Sequence record: OR539219.1
DNA length: 64,000 nucleotides
Source of the DNA: Escherichia phage vB-Eco-KMB39
Direction: 5' to 3' (one strand)
The number at the start of each line of letters is the position of its first letter. Within the stretch, counting starts at the first letter, position 1. Under the pieces are notes generated by a model. It saw only the letters and a program-made list of their open reading frames with translations, was not told where the DNA came from and searched no databases. Shown here piece by piece: positions 7,283 through 47,605 of this stretch. A program made the translations under genes and the position numbers.

Positions 7283-7753
7283 TTAATCATGTTTCCACAC
7301 CCCATCGGTATTTGACCAAAGTCGCTGATTATCTGAACCTCGCCACAGCTTTTTGGTCGGAAGATTTTTCTCATACTTCCCATCAATAATAACATCAACA
7401 TATTTAAGCATTTCTAGTTGTTTAATATCTTCAAATTTATATCCTGTCCACAACCAAATGCTTTTATTCGGATAAAGATTTTTTACTGTTTGAACCACAG
7501 AGTGAATCACGTCTCTGTTATCAGGATAAAGAGGGTCACCTCCGGTTATAGTTAATCCTTCTATATAATCATTATTCAAACATTCAATTAATTGTTCTAG
7601 TGTTTCATCAGTGAATGGAATACCATTTCTAGCATTCCATGTTGATTTATTATAACACCCTTCGCATTTATGCAAACAACCTGTAACGAAAAGAACGACC
7701 CTGCATCCAGGGCCATTCACAAAATCGCAAGGATAAAATCTATCATAATTCAT
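7283..7753 (-). CDS. nrdG: Anaerobic ribonucleotide reductase activating protein (radical SAM)
   Basis: 156 aa with CxxxCxxC cluster (GCLHKCEGCYN) and position directly downstream of nrdD. Confidence 0.92.
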   Translation of the reverse strand: MNYDRFYPCDFVNGPGCRVVLFVTGCLHKCEGCYNKSTWNARNGIPFTDETLEQLIECLNNDYIEGLTITGGDPLYPDNRDVIHSVVQTVKNLYPNKSIWLWTGYKFEDIKQLEMLKYVDVIIDGKYEKNLPTKKLWRGSDNQRLWSNTDGVWKHD

Positions 7754-9567
7754 TGGTGTTTAACCCTATGCATGATTTCTTTATTTTTACCGAGATTAAA
7801 TCCGCGTTCGTTCGGATTTCCCAAATAACCACATGTTCTTCTTATTGTGTTCATCTTTTTAGGATCAGTTTCTCCACAAATAGAACAAACAAATCCGTTT
7901 TCAGTAGGAGTCATTTCATGGGTACTTCCACATGTAAAACATTTATCTACTGGCATATTAACACCAAAATAATCTAAATGTTGTGCAGCATAATCCCATA
8001 CGGCCTCAAGGCCTTTCAAGTTATTTTTCATATCAGGAAGTTCAACATAAGAAATGTGACCACCTGTCGCAATGAAATGATATGGCGCTTCACGAGAAAT
8101 CTTTTCAAACGGAGTAATATTTTCTTCTACTGAAACGTGGAAACTGTTAGTGTACCAGCCTTTATCGGTAACATCTTTTACACTTCCATATTTTTCTGTA
8201 TCAAGTTTACAGAAGCGATAACAAAGGTTTTCAGCAGGAGTAGAATACAAACTAAAAGCAAACCCAGTTCTTTCAGTCCACTGTTTAAGACGAGCATTCA
8301 TTTTAGTTAAAATTTCTCGTCCAATATCACGACCGACAAGAATATTCAATTCGTGAATACCAATGTATCCTAGAGACACTGAACTTCTACCATTTTTAAA
8401 TAACTCAATTATATCGTCATCAGGTTTAAGACGAACCCCGAATGCACCTTCTTGGTAAAGAATAGGAGCAACAGTCGCTTTAACTCCTTTTAAGGAACTA
8501 ATTCTACACATCAATGCTTCAAAACATAAATCCATTCGTTCATTGAACAATTCAACAAATTTCTGTTCATTGAACTGTGTTCCAATATAAGAATCTAACG
8601 CGATGCGAGGAAGATTCAGTGTTACAACGCCAAGATTATTACGTCCATCAAGAATTTCATTACCAGTCGAATCTTTCCATACACTCAAGAAACTACGGCA
8701 GCCCATTGGAGAAACTGGAACTGAAGAACCAGTAATAGCTTTATTATTCTTAACCGAAATAATGTCAGGATACATTCTTTTGCTTGCACATTCTAACGCA
8801 AGTTGTTTAATATCATAGTTCGGATCATCTTTATAAAGATTAACACCTTCTTCAACAAACATAACAAGCTTAGGGAAAATAGGAGTTATCCCATCACGAC
8901 CAAGACCTTTAATACGATTTTTCAGAATTGCTTTCTGAATCATTCGTTCAGTCCAGTCAGTTCCTGTACCAAATGTAATTGTTACAAAAGGTGTTTGTCC
9001 GTTTGAACTAAAGAGAGTATTTACTTCATATTCATAAGCTTGGAATGCATCGTATACATCTTTTTCTGTTTTAGATTGAGCATAATTCAACGCATCAGCG
9101 ATTTGCCATTTTTCTGCATCCTCAATATGTTTTGCATAGGTGCGTTTAACATAAGGAGAAAGTACTTTATCTACATTAGCAAAAGTCGTTCCGCCGTATT
9201 GATGGGAAGCAACCTGTGCAGTAATTTGTGCCATAATTGCAGTAGCAACACCGATTGATTTAGGAGTTTCAATCTGTGCATTACCAAGCTTAAATCCATT
9301 CTCAAGCATTCCTTTTAAATCTACTAAACAACAATTAGTAAATGGAAGAGCAGGGGAATAATCAATATCGTGGAAATGAATAATTCCGCTTTCATGCGCT
9401 TTCATAATAAAAGACGGGACCATATTTTTGGCAATGTGTTTAGACACAATACCAGCCATAAGGTCCCGTTGAGTTGGAAAAACACGAGAATCTTTATTAG
9501 CATTCTCGTTTAAAAGGTCTTTATTAGTTTTATGAATCAATCCTTCAATTTCTTTTTCAATTGTCAT
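7750..9567 (-). CDS. nrdD: Anaerobic ribonucleoside-triphosphate reductase, uninterrupted (no intron)
   Basis: 605-aa continuous ORF ending with Cys cluster and glycyl-radical region; same length as the T4 NrdD protein. Confidence 0.95.
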   Translation of the reverse strand: MTIEKEIEGLIHKTNKDLLNENANKDSRVFPTQRDLMAGIVSKHIAKNMVPSFIMKAHESGIIHFHDIDYSPALPFTNCCLVDLKGMLENGFKLGNAQIETPKSIGVATAIMAQITAQVASHQYGGTTFANVDKVLSPYVKRTYAKHIEDAEKWQIADALNYAQSKTEKDVYDAFQAYEYEVNTLFSSNGQTPFVTITFGTGTDWTERMIQKAILKNRIKGLGRDGITPIFPKLVMFVEEGVNLYKDDPNYDIKQLALECASKRMYPDIISVKNNKAITGSSVPVSPMGCRSFLSVWKDSTGNEILDGRNNLGVVTLNLPRIALDSYIGTQFNEQKFVELFNERMDLCFEALMCRISSLKGVKATVAPILYQEGAFGVRLKPDDDIIELFKNGRSSVSLGYIGIHELNILVGRDIGREILTKMNARLKQWTERTGFAFSLYSTPAENLCYRFCKLDTEKYGSVKDVTDKGWYTNSFHVSVEENITPFEKISREAPYHFIATGGHISYVELPDMKNNLKGLEAVWDYAAQHLDYFGVNMPVDKCFTCGSTHEMTPTENGFVCSICGETDPKKMNTIRRTCGYLGNPNERGFNLGKNKEIMHRVKHQ

Positions 9568-10037
9568 TTTAAACTCTTTCTAAGCTGCTTCTTAAATGAA
9601 GCTATTAATTGTGTTTTGGTGTCAGATTCATTATATTCAAATCCTCTTTGAAGCATCTCGGCCATCATTTCCTCTTTTCCTAAACGAGAAAATTCCTTTG
9701 ATTTATCTCCAACGAAGTTAGGGTGAATATTATTTTGGGTGTAATCGGATTTTAAATAAGTAAGTAAATTTTCTAACCATTCAAGATAATCAACGCCTTG
9801 TCCCTTTAAACCAGAGCGATTAAATTTATGTTTCATTTGACCTTCTGCAGCATTGCAGAGATTACAAAGCAATCCACGTACCTTTCCTGCTTTTGGTCCA
9901 TTTAATTCATGGTCATGATCGAGGTGATTAGCTTGAACATCAGGATTTAGTTCTCGTTGGCAAATTAAGCATTTACCGTTTTGTGCATCATAAAATTTCT
10001 GTTTTTCTTCTTTATATAATTTGCCAGTCAATAACAT
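9564..10037 (-). CDS. 49: Endonuclease VII (Holliday junction resolvase)
   Basis: 157 aa, MLLTGKLYKEEKQKFYDAQNGKCLICQ Zn-binding N-terminus as in T4 gp49. Confidence 0.94.
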   Translation of the reverse strand: MLLTGKLYKEEKQKFYDAQNGKCLICQRELNPDVQANHLDHDHELNGPKAGKVRGLLCNLCNAAEGQMKHKFNRSGLKGQGVDYLEWLENLLTYLKSDYTQNNIHPNFVGDKSKEFSRLGKEEMMAEMLQRGFEYNESDTKTQLIASFKKQLRKSLK

Positions 10038-35137: not shown

Positions 35138-35213
35138 TGGTCGAGGCAGTAGGGATCGAACCTACGACCCAGGACTTAGAAGGTCCTTGCTCTTCCTTCT
35201 GAGCTATGCCTCG
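35138..35213 (-). tRNA. tRNA-Arg (anticodon UCU)
   Basis: Manual cloverleaf: 7-bp acceptor CGAGGCA/TGCCTCG, anticodon loop CUUCUAA, T-arm GTAGG-TTCGATC-CCTAC, 3' CCA encoded. Confidence 0.8.
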
Positions 35214-35217
35214 TATT

Positions 35218-35292
35218 TGGCGGACGTGATAGGATTCGAACCTATAACCAATCGCTTAACAGGCGATCGCTCTGCCATTGAGCTACACATCC
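35218..35292 (-). tRNA. tRNA-Asn (anticodon GUU)
   Basis: Manual cloverleaf: anticodon stem ATCGC/GCGAT, loop CUGUUAA, T-loop TTCGAAT, CCA encoded. Confidence 0.7.
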
Positions 35293-35296
35293 AAAT

Positions 35297-35383
35297 TGGT
35301 GGGGAGTGGTGGAGTCGAACCACCCGAGTCGCAATGACAATGAATTTACAGTCCACACCGCTACCCCTACGGGATAACTCCCC
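35297..35383 (-). tRNA. tRNA-Tyr (anticodon GUA), long variable arm
   Basis: Acceptor GGGGAGT/ACTCCCC, anticodon loop CUGUAAA identical to bacterial tRNA-Tyr, long extra arm, T-arm GGTGG-TTCGACT-CCACC, CCA. Confidence 0.65.
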
Positions 35384-35392
35384 AAATTAATT

Positions 35393-35467
35393 TGGTGGCC
35401 CTGGGTGGAATTGAACCACCATCTGGCGATTATGAGTCGCTTGCTTGAACCTTCCAGCTACAGGGCC
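35393..35467 (-). tRNA. tRNA-Ile (anticodon CAU, presumably lysidine-modified; Met not excluded)
   Basis: Anticodon loop CUCAUAA; acceptor GGCCCTG/CAGGGCC; CCA encoded. Confidence 0.7.
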
Positions 35468-35468
35468 T

Positions 35469-35544
35469 TGGTGCTGATTGACGGAATCGAACCGCCGACA
35501 TCCTCATTACAAGTGAGGTGCTCTACCTACTGAGCTAAATCAGC
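35469..35544 (-). tRNA. tRNA-Thr (anticodon UGU)
   Basis: GCTGATTTAGCTCAGTAGGTAGAGCACCTCACTTGTAATGAGG...; anticodon loop CUUGUAA. Confidence 0.8.
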
Positions 35545-35549
35545 AAAAC

Positions 35550-35639
35550 TGGCGGAGGCGATAGGATTTGAACCTATGAGTCGCCGGAGCGACTGCCGGT
35601 TTTCAAGACCGGTGCATTCAACCACTCTGCCACGCCTCC
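35550..35639 (-). tRNA. tRNA-Ser (anticodon UGA), long variable arm
   Basis: Acceptor GGAGGCG/CGCCTCC, anticodon loop CUUGAAA, long extra arm, CCA. Confidence 0.8.
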
Positions 35640-35653
35640 AAATATTTATATAT

Positions 35654-36262
35654 TTATATATTGTTAATTTGATTTAGAATTCTTTTTGCTTGAGTATGAC
35701 TTACGCCAATATGCTTAGCATATTTAGATAATTCGCCGCGTTTAGAAAAATCATATAATTTAGAAATTTCTATTCTTCTTTTTCTTTCATCCGCAGAAAC
35801 TTTTGCTTCGTTTGCTTTTGCTATTTTACGTTTAGCTTCTTGAGAATGAGTTTTACCAGCAAAGCCATTCTTCATTAATCCATTTGAAGACCATCCTTTT
35901 AATTTTCCGTTAGAATGTGCCTTTTTAACACCCAATGAAATTAATTCGCGTTGCTGATCTGTCATAGGATAATTATTTATATGATCCCATCCACCTTCAC
36001 CTCCAAGTTTTAAATTATACACATCTGGTCTATTTAAAAACTCTTCTGTGACAATATTTTTCTCGGCTTCAAGCATAGATTCTTTATCATCAAAATACTC
36101 TAATATTTCTTTAGAAAAATTTTCTATACCATATTTATCTTGGGCTCTTTTTAATAATTTACCAGAACCCATATATCCATCATCTAAATTTTCGGTAGAA
36201 TGCACACCAATATAAATTTTATTATTAATTTTATTTGTTATTTTATAAAGATAAAAATGCAT
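35654..36262 (-). mobile_element. segB: GIY-YIG homing endonuclease SegB-like, within the tRNA cluster
   Basis: N-terminal GIY-YIG motif (FYLYKITNKINNKIYIGVHS); sits between two tRNA sub-clusters as T4 segB does; start taken at ATG 36260-36262 (SD AGGGA), track ORF extends to 36304. Confidence 0.8.
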
Positions 36263-36308
36263 ATCAGTCCCTAATAAAGAACTGAGCGTCTCACGACGAG
36301 TCATAAAT

Positions 36309-36382
<74 letters not shown>

Positions 36383-36387
36383 AAATT

Positions 36388-36474
36388 TGGTGCGAGAAGT
36401 GGGACTCGAACCCACAAGGAAATAATTCCGCAGCATTTTAAGTGCTGTGCCTTTACCAATTTGACCATTCTCGC
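36388..36474 (-). tRNA. tRNA-Leu (anticodon UAA)
   Basis: GCGAGAATGGTCAAATTGGTAAAGGCACAGCACTTAAAATGCTGCGG...GGGTTCGAGTCCCACTTCTCGCACCA; long variable arm. Confidence 0.9.
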
Positions 36475-36476
36475 GC

Positions 36477-36548
36477 TGGGAATAAAGGACTCGAACCTTT
36501 GCATCCTGGAATCAAAATCCAGTGCCTTACCAACTTGGCTAATTCCCA
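36477..36548 (-). tRNA. tRNA-Gln (anticodon UUG)
   Basis: TGGGAATTAGCCAAGTTGGTAAGGCACTGGATTTTGATTCCAG...GGTTCGAGTCCTTTATTCCCAGCCA. Confidence 0.85.
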
Positions 36549-40507: not shown

Positions 40508-41167
40508 TTAATTTATTAGACTTCTTAAACGAGCAGAAGTCATAAATGGAAATTTTTCTAAAGTTGGCTTTCGCCAATATCTTGGATGACAAGTTGATTT
40601 AAAATCAAGAACAATTTTCTTTGCTTCATCAATAGTGTTAACTCCAAAGTTATCTAACATTATTTTCTTTTCTTTTTCCCACCGTTTATTAGCTAAAGCA
40701 GATTGAAGCTTTTTGTTTTTAAATGTGTCATTTTTTCTAGAATGAGTTGTGCCTTGTGTCGGACTCCATCCTCTTCCTAAAATAAATCCCTCAGGAATTA
40801 TATCTCCATCATGTAATTTTATACATCTTTTACCATTATTATAATATTTTCGTCCAGTTTGTGTATTTGAAATATTATTTACATGTTTTCTTTTTAACCA
40901 ACCATAAACTTTATTATTTCTCCTAACATATTTAGTTGAAACCGTCATTTTTATGGCTGCATAAGATAATTTTAAAGAATTTGGGTGTATTTTTACTAAT
41001 AGCTGATGTGCAACATAATGCTCTTCTGGAGTTAAATCAACCAAGTTAGAAGCATCATTACTACCGCCTAAACATTTCGGAATAATATGATGTCTTTCTT
41101 TATATCCAGTAAGGGCTCTATTGCGAGCCCTATCAATTAGTGAATTATAAATTTTTTCATAATTCAT
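40508..41167 (-). mobile_element. Free-standing HNH homing endonuclease inserted between genes 2 and 3
   Basis: HNH motif ...YKERHHIIPKCLGGSNDASNLVDLTPEEHYVAHQ...; ATG 41165-41167 overlaps gene 2 stop (ATGA); 219 aa. Confidence 0.8.
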
Positions 41168-41991
41168 CGTACATTGCTCCAAACTTTGTTTGCAGAGAAA
41201 CGTTTTCCTTTGGAGTAGAAGCTTTGGAGTGGCATCAACACAACGTTCGCCCAGTCTTTCGGGGCGATTTCAACAAGGCTACCCATAATATTACCGGGTA
41301 TATATGCCTTAATCATTTGGTCTGCACCCCTAAATCCTTTCACTTGACTCCAATCAATTTTTAATTTCGTTTTATTAGTAATAGTAGGTGTATTTGAATA
41401 TTGCTTTAAAAGCTCTTCTAGAAATTGCTGACGAGCTTTAGGTGGAATATAGTGCAAGTTTAATCCGTACATTAAATTGTGCTTACCTAAACCAAGGTAA
41501 ATTATCAAAGGAAATTTATCCCAGTAAGGAAGAGTTTCCTTGTGTTTAGCATCATAAGCAAAAGCATATATTCGTCCCGGTTGCGGGCGAACAACTTTAT
41601 GTCCTTTTACTTGCTTAATAGTTTCAGCAAACCACTTTCTGGTTTTATTATTAATTGCTGCACCTTCATTACGAATTTTATCACGCAATGTTTGTCTGAA
41701 TGAATTTATCATAAGCAGTTGTCTTTCTTGCTTATTGAGTTTATTCATTGGTTTTGATTCAAGCTTTTGAATCTTTTCAGCCGTTTTAATTCCTGAAGCA
41801 TATTTTGACATTGCTGAAGTAAACGTAGAGTATTTGATTCCTCTTTCTTCAGCAAATTGCTTTCCTGTCATTCCTTTTGCTTTGGCCTTTTTATATTCAA
41901 GACCTATCTGAATCCATTTCTTTTCGTTTAATGATTGCTTAACCTTTGGAACTTGGGGAGTGCTTTCATTAATTATTTGAAAAATAGCCAT
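41164..41991 (-). CDS. 2: DNA end protector protein gp2
   Basis: 275 aa at the T4 gene 2 position between genes 4 and 3. Confidence 0.88.
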
Positions 41992-43081: not shown

Positions 43082-44792
43082 TAACCTTAATTGGTTTGTT
43101 GGTGTTGTTGAAGATAGAATGGACCCATTAAAATTAGGTCGTGTTCGTGTTCGTGTGGTTGGTCTGCATCCACCTCAAAGAGCACAAGGTGATGTAATGG
43201 GTATTCCAACTGAAAAATTACCATGGATGTCAGTTATTCAACCTATAACTTCTGCAGCAATGTCAGGAATTGGAGGTTCTGTTACTGGACCGGTAGAAGG
43301 AACTAGAGTTTATGGTCATTTTTTAGACAAATGGAAAACTAACGGAATTGTCCTTGGCACGTATGGTGGAATAGTTCGCGAAAAACCGAATAGACTTGAA
43401 GGATTTTCTGACCCAACTGGGCAATATCCTAGACGTTTAGGAAATGATACTAACGTATTAAACCAAGGCGGAGAAGTAGGATATGATTCGTCTTCTAATA
43501 TTATCCAAGATAGTAATCTAGACACTGCAATAAATCCCGATGATAGACCACTATCAGAAATTCCAACTGATGATAATCCAAATATGTCAATGGCTGAAAT
43601 GCTTCGCCGTGATGAAGGATTAAGACTAAAAGTTTATTGGGATACCGAAGGATATCCGACAATTGGTATTGGTCATCTTATCATGAAGCAGCCAGTTCGT
43701 GATATGGCTCAAATTAATAAAGTTTTATCAAAACAAGTTGGTCGTGAAATTACAGGAAATCCAGGTTCTATTACAATGGAAGAAGCGACAGCTTTATTTG
43801 AGCGTGATTTGGCTGATATGCAACGTGACATTAAATCACATTCTAAAGTAGGACCAGTCTGGCAAGCTGTCAACCGTTCTCGTCAAATGGCATTAGAAAA
43901 TATGGCATTTCAGATGGGTGTTGGCGGTGTAGCTAAATTTAACACAATGTTAACTGCTATGTTAGCCGGAGATTGGGAAAAAGCATATAAAGCTGGTCGT
44001 GATTCATTGTGGTATCAACAAACAAAAGGCCGTGCATCCCGTGTTACCATGATTATTCTTACAGGTAATTTGGAATCATACGGTATTGAAGTGAAAACAC
44101 CGGCTAGGTCTTTGTCAGCAATGGCTGCTGCTGTAACAAAGTCTTCTGATCCAGCTGACCCTCCTATTCCGAATGATTCGAGAATTTTATTTAAAGAACC
44201 TGTTTCTTCATATAAAGGTGAATATCCGTATGTTCACACAATGGAAACTGAAAGCGGTCATATTCAGGAATTTGACGATACCCCGGGACAAGAACGATAC
44301 AGATTAGTTCATCCGACTGGAACATATGAGGAAGTATCACCGTCAGGAAGAAGAACAAGAAAAACTGTTGATAATTTGTATGATATAACAAATGCTGATG
44401 GTAATTTTTTGGTAGCTGGCGATAAAAAGACTAACGTCGGTGGATCAGAAATTTATTACAACATGGATAATCGTCTTCACCAAATAGATGGAAGCAATAC
44501 GATATTTGTGCGTGGCGATGAAACTAAGACGGTTGAAGGTAATGGAACTCTCCTAGTCAAAGGTAATGTTACTATTGTAGTTGAAGGTAATGCTGACATT
44601 ACAGTTAAAGGAGATGCTACCACTTTAGTTGAAGGAAATCAGACTAATACAGTAAATGGAAATCTTTCTTGGAAAGTTGCTGGGACAGTTGATTGGGACG
44701 TTGGTGGTGATTGGACAGAAAAAATGGCATCTATGAGTTCTATTTCATCTGGTCAATACACAATTGATGGATCGAGGATTGACATTGGCTAA
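43065..44792 (+). CDS. 5: Baseplate hub / cell-puncturing protein with lysozyme domain gp5
   Basis: 575 aa; MEMISNNLNWFVGVVEDRMDP N-terminus; lysozyme domain (MAEMLRRDEGLRLKVYWDTEGYPTIGIGHL); C-terminal VEGN beta-helix repeats. Confidence 0.96.
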   Translation: MEMISNNLNWFVGVVEDRMDPLKLGRVRVRVVGLHPPQRAQGDVMGIPTEKLPWMSVIQPITSAAMSGIGGSVTGPVEGTRVYGHFLDKWKTNGIVLGTYGGIVREKPNRLEGFSDPTGQYPRRLGNDTNVLNQGGEVGYDSSSNIIQDSNLDTAINPDDRPLSEIPTDDNPNMSMAEMLRRDEGLRLKVYWDTEGYPTIGIGHLIMKQPVRDMAQINKVLSKQVGREITGNPGSITMEEATALFERDLADMQRDIKSHSKVGPVWQAVNRSRQMALENMAFQMGVGGVAKFNTMLTAMLAGDWEKAYKAGRDSLWYQQTKGRASRVTMIILTGNLESYGIEVKTPARSLSAMAAAVTKSSDPADPPIPNDSRILFKEPVSSYKGEYPYVHTMETESGHIQEFDDTPGQERYRLVHPTGTYEEVSPSGRRTRKTVDNLYDITNADGNFLVAGDKKTNVGGSEIYYNMDNRLHQIDGSNTIFVRGDETKTVEGNGTLLVKGNVTIVVEGNADITVKGDATTLVEGNQTNTVNGNLSWKVAGTVDWDVGGDWTEKMASMSSISSGQYTIDGSRIDIG

Positions 44793-44826
44793 TATACTTC
44801 CAATGAGCGCTGATTTAGGAGAATCC

Positions 44827-45321
44827 ATGGAAGGTTCTTCTATCGACGTCACCTTTACTGCTCAATTAGAAACAGGTGAAACGTTAGTATCTATAAATAT
44901 AACTAGTTACGAAGAAACTCCTGGGGTTTTAGTAGAAGAAAATCGTTTATATGGAACGTATGAATCTGTATTTGGATTTGGAAATGATGCGTTGAAATAT
45001 CGTTTAGATAATGAATTTAAAACTGCTGCTTCATGGGAAGACCTTCCAACTGATTCTAATACTCAGTTATATTTATGGAAAGCTCCTCAAAACCTCCAGA
45101 AGACATTCACTTACGAAGTAACATTAATATATGACTACCAAGAACAAGGTGAATCTGGAGGTTCTGGCAGTAATTCTAGGTCATCTTCTGATACTACTGA
45201 ACCAACGAATCCTCCAGCTCCAATAAGAAAAACTCTTGTTAAAAATTACACAAAAACTATAGTTGGAAATTGGAGTCGTTGGGCTAATAAATTGAGAAGC
45301 TATGTGTATGAGAGGCAATAA
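44827..45321 (+). CDS. Hypothetical protein gp5.1-like
   Basis: ATG 44827 preceded by AGGAG; between genes 5 and 5.4. Confidence 0.55.
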
Positions 45322-45614
45322 TGTCAGGATTAAGTTATGATAAGTGTGTTACTGCCGGCCATGAAGCATGGCCTCCAACAGTTGTGAATGCTACACAAAG
45401 TAAAGTATTCACTGGAGGAATTGCTGTTCTCGTAGCAGGTGATCCAATTACAGAACATACAGAAATTAAAAAGCCATATGAAACACATGGCGGAGTGACA
45501 CAACCTAGAACTTCTAAGGTATATGTCACTGGAAAGAAAGCTGTTCAAATGGCTGATCCAATATCATGCGGTGATACTGTGGCTCAGGCATCATCTAAAG
45601 TATTCATTAAATAG
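45321..45614 (+). CDS. 5.4: PAAR-repeat spike tip protein gp5.4
   Basis: 97 aa, as T4 gp5.4; position immediately upstream of gene 6. Confidence 0.85.
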
Positions 45615-45622
45615 GATTTAAA

Positions 45623-47605
45623 ATGGCAAATACCCCTGTAAATTATCAATTAACAAGAACAGCAAATGCTATTCCCGAGATATTCGTCGGGGGTACATTT
45701 GCTGAAATAAAACAAAACCTCATTGAATGGCTTAATGGCCAAAATGAATTTTTGGATTATGATTTTGAAGGCTCAAGATTAAACGTTCTGTGTGACCTTT
45801 TAGCTTATAATACATTATACATTCAGCAGTTTGGTAATGCTGCCGTATATGAAAGCTTTATGCGTACTGCTAACTTACGTAGTTCAGTAGTTCAAGCGGC
45901 GCAAGATAATGGATATTTACCTACTTCAAAATCAGCTGCTCAAACTGAAATTATGCTAACTTGTACAGACGCATTGAATAGAAATTACATTACTATTCCT
46001 CGTGGTACTCGCTTTTTAGCATATGCAAAAGATACTTCTGTTAATCCTTATAACTTTGTCTCTACCGAAGATGTTATTGCTATTCGTGATAAAAATAACC
46101 AGTATTTTCCACGTTTAAAATTAGCCCAGGGACGTATAGTAAGAACTGAAATCATTTATGATAAATTAACACCTATTATCATTTATGACAAAAATATAGA
46201 TAGAAACCAAGTTAAACTATACGTTGATGGAGCAGAATGGATTAACTGGACAAGAAAGTCAATGGTTCATGCTGGTTCTACATCAACAATTTACTACATG
46301 CGTGAAACTATTGATGGAAATACTGAATTTTATTTTGGTGAAGGTGAGATTTCCGTTAATGCGGCAGAAGGAGCATTGACTGCTAATTATATTGGAGGTC
46401 TTAAACCTACCCAGAACTCTACGATTGTTATTGAGTACATCAGTACTAACGGTGCAGATGCGAATGGTGCAGTCGGATTTTCATACGCAGATACATTAAC
46501 AAATATAACTGTCATCAATATTAACGAAAATCCAAATGATGACCCAGATTTTGTTGGGGCAGATGGCGGCGGCGATCCAGAAGATATTGAGCGTATTCGC
46601 GAATTGGGTACTATTAAACGCGAAACCCAGCAACGCTGCGTAACTGCAACCGACTATGATACATTCGTCTCAGAAAGATTCGGTTCTATTATTCAAGCGG
46701 TTCAGACTTTCACTGATTCTACCAAACCTGGTTATGCATTTATTGCTGCTAAACCTAAATCAGGTCTGTATTTAACTACCGTACAGCGCGAAGATATTAA
46801 AAATTATCTCAAAGATTATAATTTAGCGCCTATTACACCGTCAATTATTTCTCCTAATTATCTTTTTATTAAGACTAATTTAAAAGTCACATATGCTTTA
46901 AATAAACTACAAGAATCCGAACAGTGGCTTGAAGGTCAAATAATTGATAAAATTGATCGCTATTATACCGAAGATGTAGAAATTTTTAACTCATCTTTTG
47001 CCAAGTCTAAGATGTTAACTTACGTAGATGATGCAGATCATTCTATCATTGGTTCATCAGCGACTATTCAAATTGTTCGTGAAGTACAAAACTTCTATAA
47101 AACGCCTGAAGCAGGTATTAAATACAATAATCAAATAAAAGATCGTTCTATGGAATCTAATACGTTTTCATTTAATTCTGGACGAAAGGTTGTAAATCCT
47201 GATACCGGTTTAGAAGAAGATGTATTATATGACGTTCGTATAGTATCAACAGACCGAGATTCTAAAGGAATTGGTAAAGTTATTATTGGTCCATTTGCTT
47301 CTGGCGATGTTACAGAAAATGAAAACATTCAGCCGTATACAGGCAACGATTTTAACAAATTAGCAAATTCTGATGGACGCGACAAATACTATGTTATCGG
47401 TGAAATAAATTATCCAGCTGACATGATTTATTGGAATATCGCTAAAATTAATTTAACATCTGAAAAATTTGAAGTTCAGACTATTGAATTATATTCTGAC
47501 CCAACCGATGATGTTATCTTTACTCGCGATGGTTCACTGATTGTATTTGAAAATGACTTACGTCCACAATACTTAACTATCGATTTGGAGCCTATATCAC
47601 AATGA
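45623..47605 (+). CDS. 6: Baseplate wedge protein gp6
   Basis: 660 aa as T4 gp6; order 5-6-7. Confidence 0.93.
   Translation: MANTPVNYQLTRTANAIPEIFVGGTFAEIKQNLIEWLNGQNEFLDYDFEGSRLNVLCDLLAYNTLYIQQFGNAAVYESFMRTANLRSSVVQAAQDNGYLPTSKSAAQTEIMLTCTDALNRNYITIPRGTRFLAYAKDTSVNPYNFVSTEDVIAIRDKNNQYFPRLKLAQGRIVRTEIIYDKLTPIIIYDKNIDRNQVKLYVDGAEWINWTRKSMVHAGSTSTIYYMRETIDGNTEFYFGEGEISVNAAEGALTANYIGGLKPTQNSTIVIEYISTNGADANGAVGFSYADTLTNITVININENPNDDPDFVGADGGGDPEDIERIRELGTIKRETQQRCVTATDYDTFVSERFGSIIQAVQTFTDSTKPGYAFIAAKPKSGLYLTTVQREDIKNYLKDYNLAPITPSIISPNYLFIKTNLKVTYALNKLQESEQWLEGQIIDKIDRYYTEDVEIFNSSFAKSKMLTYVDDADHSIIGSSATIQIVREVQNFYKTPEAGIKYNNQIKDRSMESNTFSFNSGRKVVNPDTGLEEDVLYDVRIVSTDRDSKGIGKVIIGPFASGDVTENENIQPYTGNDFNKLANSDGRDKYYVIGEINYPADMIYWNIAKINLTSEKFEVQTIELYSDPTDDVIFTRDGSLIVFENDLRPQYLTIDLEPISQ

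Follow-up and report, generated by a model that had tools for sequence, protein, structure and literature searches.

The stretch of DNA analysed here, referred to below as the window, comprises 64,000 nucleotides of Escherichia phage vB-Eco-KMB39 (OR539219.1). On its minus strand it carries nrdD, the gene for the large subunit of the anaerobic ribonucleotide reductase, which lies between gene 49 and nrdG, an order that T4 and T2 share. The features of this region, with positions counted from the first letter of the window, are as follows:

7283..7753, minus strand: nrdG, the radical-SAM activase of NrdD and the downstream neighbour of nrdD (Pfam Fer4_12, 2.3e-49, together with Radical_SAM)
7750..7753, minus strand: unoccupied nrdD/nrdG junction, where T4 has the HNH gene mobC
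7750..9567, minus strand: nrdD, class III (anaerobic) ribonucleoside-triphosphate reductase large subunit, a single ORF of 605 codons with an ATG start
9010..9031, minus strand: 7 clustered positions (-2, +8, +11, +14, +15, +17 and +20 from the insertion site) that differ synonymously from T4
9029..9030, minus strand: insertion site for a group I intron, empty, with 9030 (coding nt 538, U) as the last base of exon 1 and 9029 as the first of exon 2
9564..10037, minus strand: gene 49, encoding endonuclease VII, next to nrdD on its upstream side (Pfam Endonuclease_7 and Endonuc-dimeris)

The three genes are packed tightly, with gene 49 overlapping the start of nrdD by 4 nt and the ATG of nrdG overlapping the stop codon of nrdD as ATGA at 7750-7753 (junction CACCAATGAATTATGATAG). 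The nrdD product matches the Pfam family NRDD over residues 21-604 (E 1.6e-171) and Gly_radical over residues 481-586 (E 1.2e-25), and its residues 1-605 align to residues 1-605 of the crystallised T4 NrdD (1h78 and others; phmmer, 1401.8 bits). The glycyl-radical motif RTCGY is present at aa 577, and the two cysteine pairs are present as CFTCG at aa 543 and CSICG at aa 561; the roles of these motifs are presumably those established for T4 NrdD. As far as primary structure can tell, the family model, the glycyl-radical and cysteine motifs and the adjacent NrdG identify the protein as the large subunit of a class III reductase, and it would be expected to be functional and to be activated by the NrdG encoded next to it.

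An earlier sequence-only reading had described nrdD as one continuous 605-codon ORF, and this is borne out by the ORF list, by the Pfam matches and by the full-length alignment with T4 NrdD, so that for annotation nrdD is here a single CDS with no join. That the continuity might come from an error of assembly or annotation, or that nrdD might be a pseudogene, is extremely improbable in view of the full-length T4 NrdD alignment with only 3 substitutions, the intact glycyl-radical and Cys motifs, and the identical arrangement in hundreds of independent genomes.

The T4 reference and the position of the empty site

The T4 record (NC_000866) annotates nrdD as a 2-piece join; it spans 2851 bp, of which 1818 are coding and 1033 intron, and encloses the I-TevII CDS. 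The intron belongs to group IA, is 1033 nt long and occupies record positions 44815-45847, and I-TevII is a GIY-YIG endonuclease of 258 aa. The description of T4 nrdD in the earlier reading, as split by a group I intron of about 1 kb carrying I-TevII, is thus correct; the contrary case, a T4 gene continuous at the DNA level, was looked at and does not agree with the 2-piece join of the record. Between the window and spliced T4, 602 of the 605 amino acids of NrdD are identical, the substitutions being V65F, A272V and H426R, and 74 of the 1818 nucleotides of nrdD differ (95.9% nt identity). T4 and the window therefore share an orthologous nrdD in the same neighbourhood, 49 - nrdD - nrdG, whereas the 1033-nt intron with I-TevII, the flank haplotype linked to that intron, and mobC between nrdD and nrdG are found in T4 only.

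In the blastn comparison with T4, the alignment breaks at window 9032/9029. In order to place the site, all split points were tried, and a split after nt 538 gave the fewest mismatches. Group I introns require an exon that ends in U and an intron that ends in G; when the split is put after nt 538, the last exon base is U and the last intron base is G, and both the window and T4 read A-Y-E-Y-E-V across the nrdD junction. A split after nt 536 was considered and rejected, because it produces two false amino acid differences (D-D vs E-Y), whereas nt 538 fits both the group I rules and the mismatch minimum. Alignment with T4 nrdD, which the sequence-only reading had named as the way to find the empty site, thus locates it exactly, at window 9030/9029, or coding nt 538/539. 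This one insertion position is shared, in other phages, by T4-type introns (1033 nt), SP1-type introns (1045-1047 nt) and an ORF-less intron of 479 nt.

The nrdD of phage T2 (MH751506, PV958097) is the classical intron-less T-even allele. Like the window, T2 has gene 49 upstream of a continuous nrdD of 1818 bp, which overlaps nrdG as ATGA without an intervening mobC. From -28 to +37 the sites of the two phages do not differ, and their nrdD genes are 96.9% nt identical overall. The two alleles differ by 57 nucleotides scattered across nrdD. Over the first 25 kb, the records nearest to the window are ECML-363, Sf23, CrRp10 and RB14, at about 96-97%.

Introns and endonuclease genes in the window and in related phages

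At the gathering thresholds of Rfam, Intron_gpI (RF00028) has no match in the whole 64-kb window, where the scan returns 8 tRNAs only. As positive controls, the same scan finds Intron_gpI inside T4 nrdD (105.3 bits) and in phage 215Ecol030PP (70.9 bits). The full-length SP1-type intron (SP1 locus, L024), described below, is missed by Rfam at the gathering score, and therefore the absence of an intron from the window rests also on blastn and on the uninterrupted reading frame. By blastn, neither of the two known nrdD introns has a match within the window, and by tblastn neither I-TevII nor its SP1-type homologue has a match at E <= 1e-3 anywhere in the whole window. A remnant of an intron or endonuclease elsewhere in the window was also sought; the sole match, at about 41 kb, is an HNH gene that resembles mobC and is unrelated to nrdD.

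Besides the T4-type intron, a second intron lineage occupies exactly the T4 insertion site in other phages, with vB_EcoM_SP1, SYGD1, FL44, HY03 and JK45 as examples, and it is called SP1-type here:

Phage SP1, locus L024, 1956-3000: SP1-type intron (also in loci L025 and L026)

Its length is 1045-1047 nt; the first ~630 nt share about 70% nt identity with the T4 intron, beyond which there are short matches only. Its endonuclease is a GIY-YIG protein of 256 aa, 56% aa identical to I-TevII, and its P1 guide is GCUCAUG, as in the T4 intron. Its flanks form a third haplotype of their own, with CAGGCGTATGAGT before the site and ATGAAGTAAATACACTTTTCAGC after it. The SP1-type intron is full-length in 44 records, to which 2 ORF-less derivatives are added, namely those of 215Ecol030PP (479 nt; L023, 2541-3019) and of BYEP01 (OR757453; about 345 nt). 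In these derivatives the endonuclease gene has been deleted and the ribozyme core kept, as the above Rfam match to L023 indicates. It was also observed that Rfam detects the ORF-less intron of L023 and not the SP1 intron of L024, despite the identity of the two introns over the first 293 nt.

Fragments of the SP1-type intron at first seemed to be widespread (203 records, at >=99%), but they are actually a 42-nt segment of the group I core that is identical to the td intron. This segment, nt 30-71 of the SP1-type intron (L024, 1985-2026), matches part of the td intron at 100% in many other T-even phages, RB9 and RB3 among them. About 300 partial database matches arise because it is common to td introns. 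The 42-nt core segment is not present in the window.

A search with the 3.3-kb region of the window gives matches in 1026 phage records, and in 756 of these a single place covers at least 80% of the region. The exact 45-nt empty site of the window occurs in 465 phage records, T2 among them, and a continuous 92-nt site at >=90% identity occurs in about 637 records. Full-length T4-type intron DNA is found in 25 records only, many of which are T4 laboratory isolates or duplicates; other carriers of the T4-type intron include RB55, RB59, PST, G8, RPN226, fPS-2, U5, EC128 and Manna. Roughly 1 in 10 records at the level of Tequatrovirus is thus occupied at the nrdD site and roughly 9 in 10 are continuous, the occupancy of ~10% being a rough figure because the record counts contain RefSeq/GenBank duplicates and many laboratory T4 isolates. 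The IMG/VR survey comprised 21 loci, and the population counts were taken instead from the annotated phage collection.

Since the late 1980s, introns have been known to occur variably in the T-even phages; this is textbook knowledge and led to the discovery of intron homing. The primary papers on intron distribution are said to be those of Quirk (1989) and of Sandegren & Sjoberg (2004). An intron-less nrdD is already known and ordinary, and it is the default among T4 relatives. The absence of the intron does distinguish this genome from T4, as the earlier reading stated, but it does not single the genome out, since 465 records have the identical empty site. For vB-Eco-KMB39 itself the intron-less nrdD matters little, and the window serves as a clean example of an unoccupied site. 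T4, in turn, has been called "an oddity", with 15 homing endonucleases where most relatives have few (PMC2988022).

The junction between nrdD and nrdG is a further place at which the window and T4 differ. The T4 annotation puts the free-standing mobC between the two genes, and the window-T4 alignment jumps there from T4 record position 43524 to 42916. In SYGD1 the junction holds segH, and in T2 it is empty as in the window. G8 has the intron without mobC, and 215Ecol030PP has the shrunken intron together with mobC; these combinations indicate that intron and mobC are inherited independently. It may also be mentioned that T4 mobC opens with the codons of nrdG (ATGAATTATGAC/T, M-N-Y-D-R), which gives the impression that the start of nrdG was duplicated by the insertion.

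Elsewhere in the window, two ORFs of endonuclease type were observed:

35654-36304, minus strand: ORF of a 216-aa GIY-YIG endonuclease (Pfam GIY-YIG 6.3e-06, SegE_GIY-YIG, NUMOD3)
40508-41182, minus strand: ORF of 224 aa with an HNH motif, between two ORFs of structural-gene size

The former lies between two tRNA groups of the cluster at 35141-36548, which is the position of segB in T4, so that homing endonucleases as such are not missing from the genome. The latter is 34% identical to T4 MobC over 126 aa (tblastn, E 6e-16) and matches Pfam HNH_5 weakly, at 17.8 bits, under the cut-off. It is probably a free-standing endonuclease of the mob type, at a position that is unoccupied in T4.

Flank haplotypes and P1 pairing

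The window has the unoccupied flank haplotype, which reads GAAT before the site and ATGAAGTAAATACTCTCTTTAGT after it. With regard to the I-TevII recognition sequence, the exon junction is conserved relative to T4 at 27 of the 34 positions from -10 to +24, and it departs from T4 at the other 7, all of them synonymous and situated between -2 and +20, so that conservation of the sequence is partial. Nowhere else in nrdD do differences lie so densely, with 7 of them within 24 nt (P about 0.01 if they were placed at random). The window haplotype is common to T2 and to 8/8 intron-less Tequatrovirus loci of IMG/VR, two of which have one extra change, while the T4-type flank haplotype is alike in T4 and G8. 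In no intron-less record does the T4 junction haplotype occur as a continuous sequence, the best match being 94.6% (Salmonella phage SG1) and the next 92.4%. On these alignments, the flank differences are linked to the intron side, that is, to T4, and are no peculiarity of the window genome. In relatives at ~78% aa identity the flank is largely window-like, with GAAT before the site and ATGAAGT(C/G/T)AATAC(T)(C/T)T(G/T)TT(C/T) after it, and since these more distant relatives agree with the window, the T4 flank is probably the derived version.

The difference at -2 can be explained by the ribozyme itself, because a G at this position completes the P1 helix of the intron. G stands at -2 in every intron-plus allele of both lineages, and A stands there in the window. 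With the exon sequence UAUGAGU, the guide GCUCAUG forms a P1 of 7 bp (-6.1 kcal/mol) that ends in the U.G wobble of the splice site; with UAUGAAU of the window, the same guide forms 5 bp (-2.5 kcal/mol) and the splice-site U.G pair is lost. When A is at -2, the minimum-energy fold no longer forms P1, and according to this modelling G at -2 is needed for pairing with the internal guide sequence of the intron.

For the other six differences (+8..+20), pairing of exon 2 in P10 was considered as a cause, and no convincing pairing could be found by eye. I-TevII reportedly cuts at +13/+15 (Bell-Pedersen et al. 1990), which corresponds to window 9017/9015. Intron-encoded endonucleases cut no further than 25 bp from the insertion site (PMC2988022), and all six differences fall within that distance. 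The seven differences as a whole sit where I-TevII would be expected to bind and cut, and it is possible that they reduce its cleavage of the window allele. Co-conversion of the flanking exons has been documented in T4 intron homing (PMC2988022), and the six remaining differences are most likely donor sequence that was brought in by co-conversion and is held by tight linkage.

The window allele as a homing recipient

Taken as a whole, the nrdD of the window is very probably the common unoccupied allele of a long-known mobile group I intron polymorphism, and as such it would be an expected recipient in homing. The junction of exon 1 and exon 2 is uninterrupted at the T4 insertion position, as a recipient allele requires. 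The phage is a Tequatrovirus of the T4/T2-like kind, in which nrdD is translated directly and no splicing is needed, and the insertion site at 9030/9029 is intact, within the intron-less flank haplotype identical to that of T2. Were an intron-plus phage to infect the same cell, the window allele would be the expected recipient: the endonuclease would cut near the site, repair of the break would draw on the intron-plus copy, and in this way the intron would be copied in together with its flanks. The suggestion of the sequence-only reading that this genome is a homing target for I-TevII is plausible, because the site of the window is identical to that of T2. In the work of Quirk et al. (1989, Cell 56:455), intron-less T2 reportedly gained the td and the sunY (nrdD) introns at high frequency in crosses with T4.

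Against this reading stands the idea that the empty haplotype is an immune allele, in which the synonymous changes of the window type reduce cutting by endonucleases of the I-TevII family and are kept in intron-less phages, so that the intron stays rare. This is in agreement with the fact that the seven differences are all synonymous and form the densest cluster of nrdD exactly at -2..+20, and the flank of the SP1-type intron also departs from the window, at +14, +17 and +20. It would, moreover, bear on a recognised paradox, namely that homing is efficient in the laboratory and yet endonucleases are scarce in nature (PMC2988022). The largely window-like flank of the relatives at ~78% aa identity, however, suggests an ancestral state rather than an evolved escape, the change at -2 is explained by P1, and linkage with hitch-hiking covers the rest without selection. 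The T2 site, furthermore, is identical, and T2 reportedly took up the sunY intron efficiently (Quirk et al. 1989). An immune allele is for these reasons an unlikely account of the window.

A broader form of the same thought, which we also regard as unlikely, makes the nrdD site a three-way battleground, in which two diverged intron/endonuclease lineages, each with private synonymous flanks at the cleavage position, meet an empty haplotype that would be partly resistant to one or both of them. If this were true, partial resistance of the empty haplotype would help to reconcile efficient homing in the laboratory with the rarity of the introns in nature.

It is rather improbable that the absence is secondary, that is, that an ancestor of the window phage had the nrdD intron and lost it precisely, through recombination with an intron-less phage or through a spliced copy. 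Precise loss or replacement does seem to happen, since the intron-less SG1 has flanks of the intron type, with GAGT before the site and ATGAAGTGAACACGTTATTCAGT after it, and shrunken ORF-less introns exist, of 479 nt in 215Ecol030PP and about 345 nt in BYEP01. The window, in contrast, is without the intron-linked flank variants: it has A at -2, and its core is that of T2 and of the 465 records. Loss by recombination with an intron-less phage would erase its footprint and give the same look as a site that was never occupied. The common, unoccupied allele of the known polymorphism remains the preferred reading of the window.

The by-products of the nrdD site survey concern other genomes and not the window, and they are of modest interest to population work on homing endonucleases: the two intron lineages, their linked flanks, the P1 base at -2, and the "footprint" allele of SG1. 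In this Salmonella phage (L027, 2003-3820), nrdD is intron-less and the SP1-type exon 1 sequence CAGGCGTATGAGT is joined to the T4-type exon 2 sequence ATGAAGTGAACACGTTATTCAGT, so that the allele looks like either the footprint of an intron loss or a recombinant of two intron-plus alleles.
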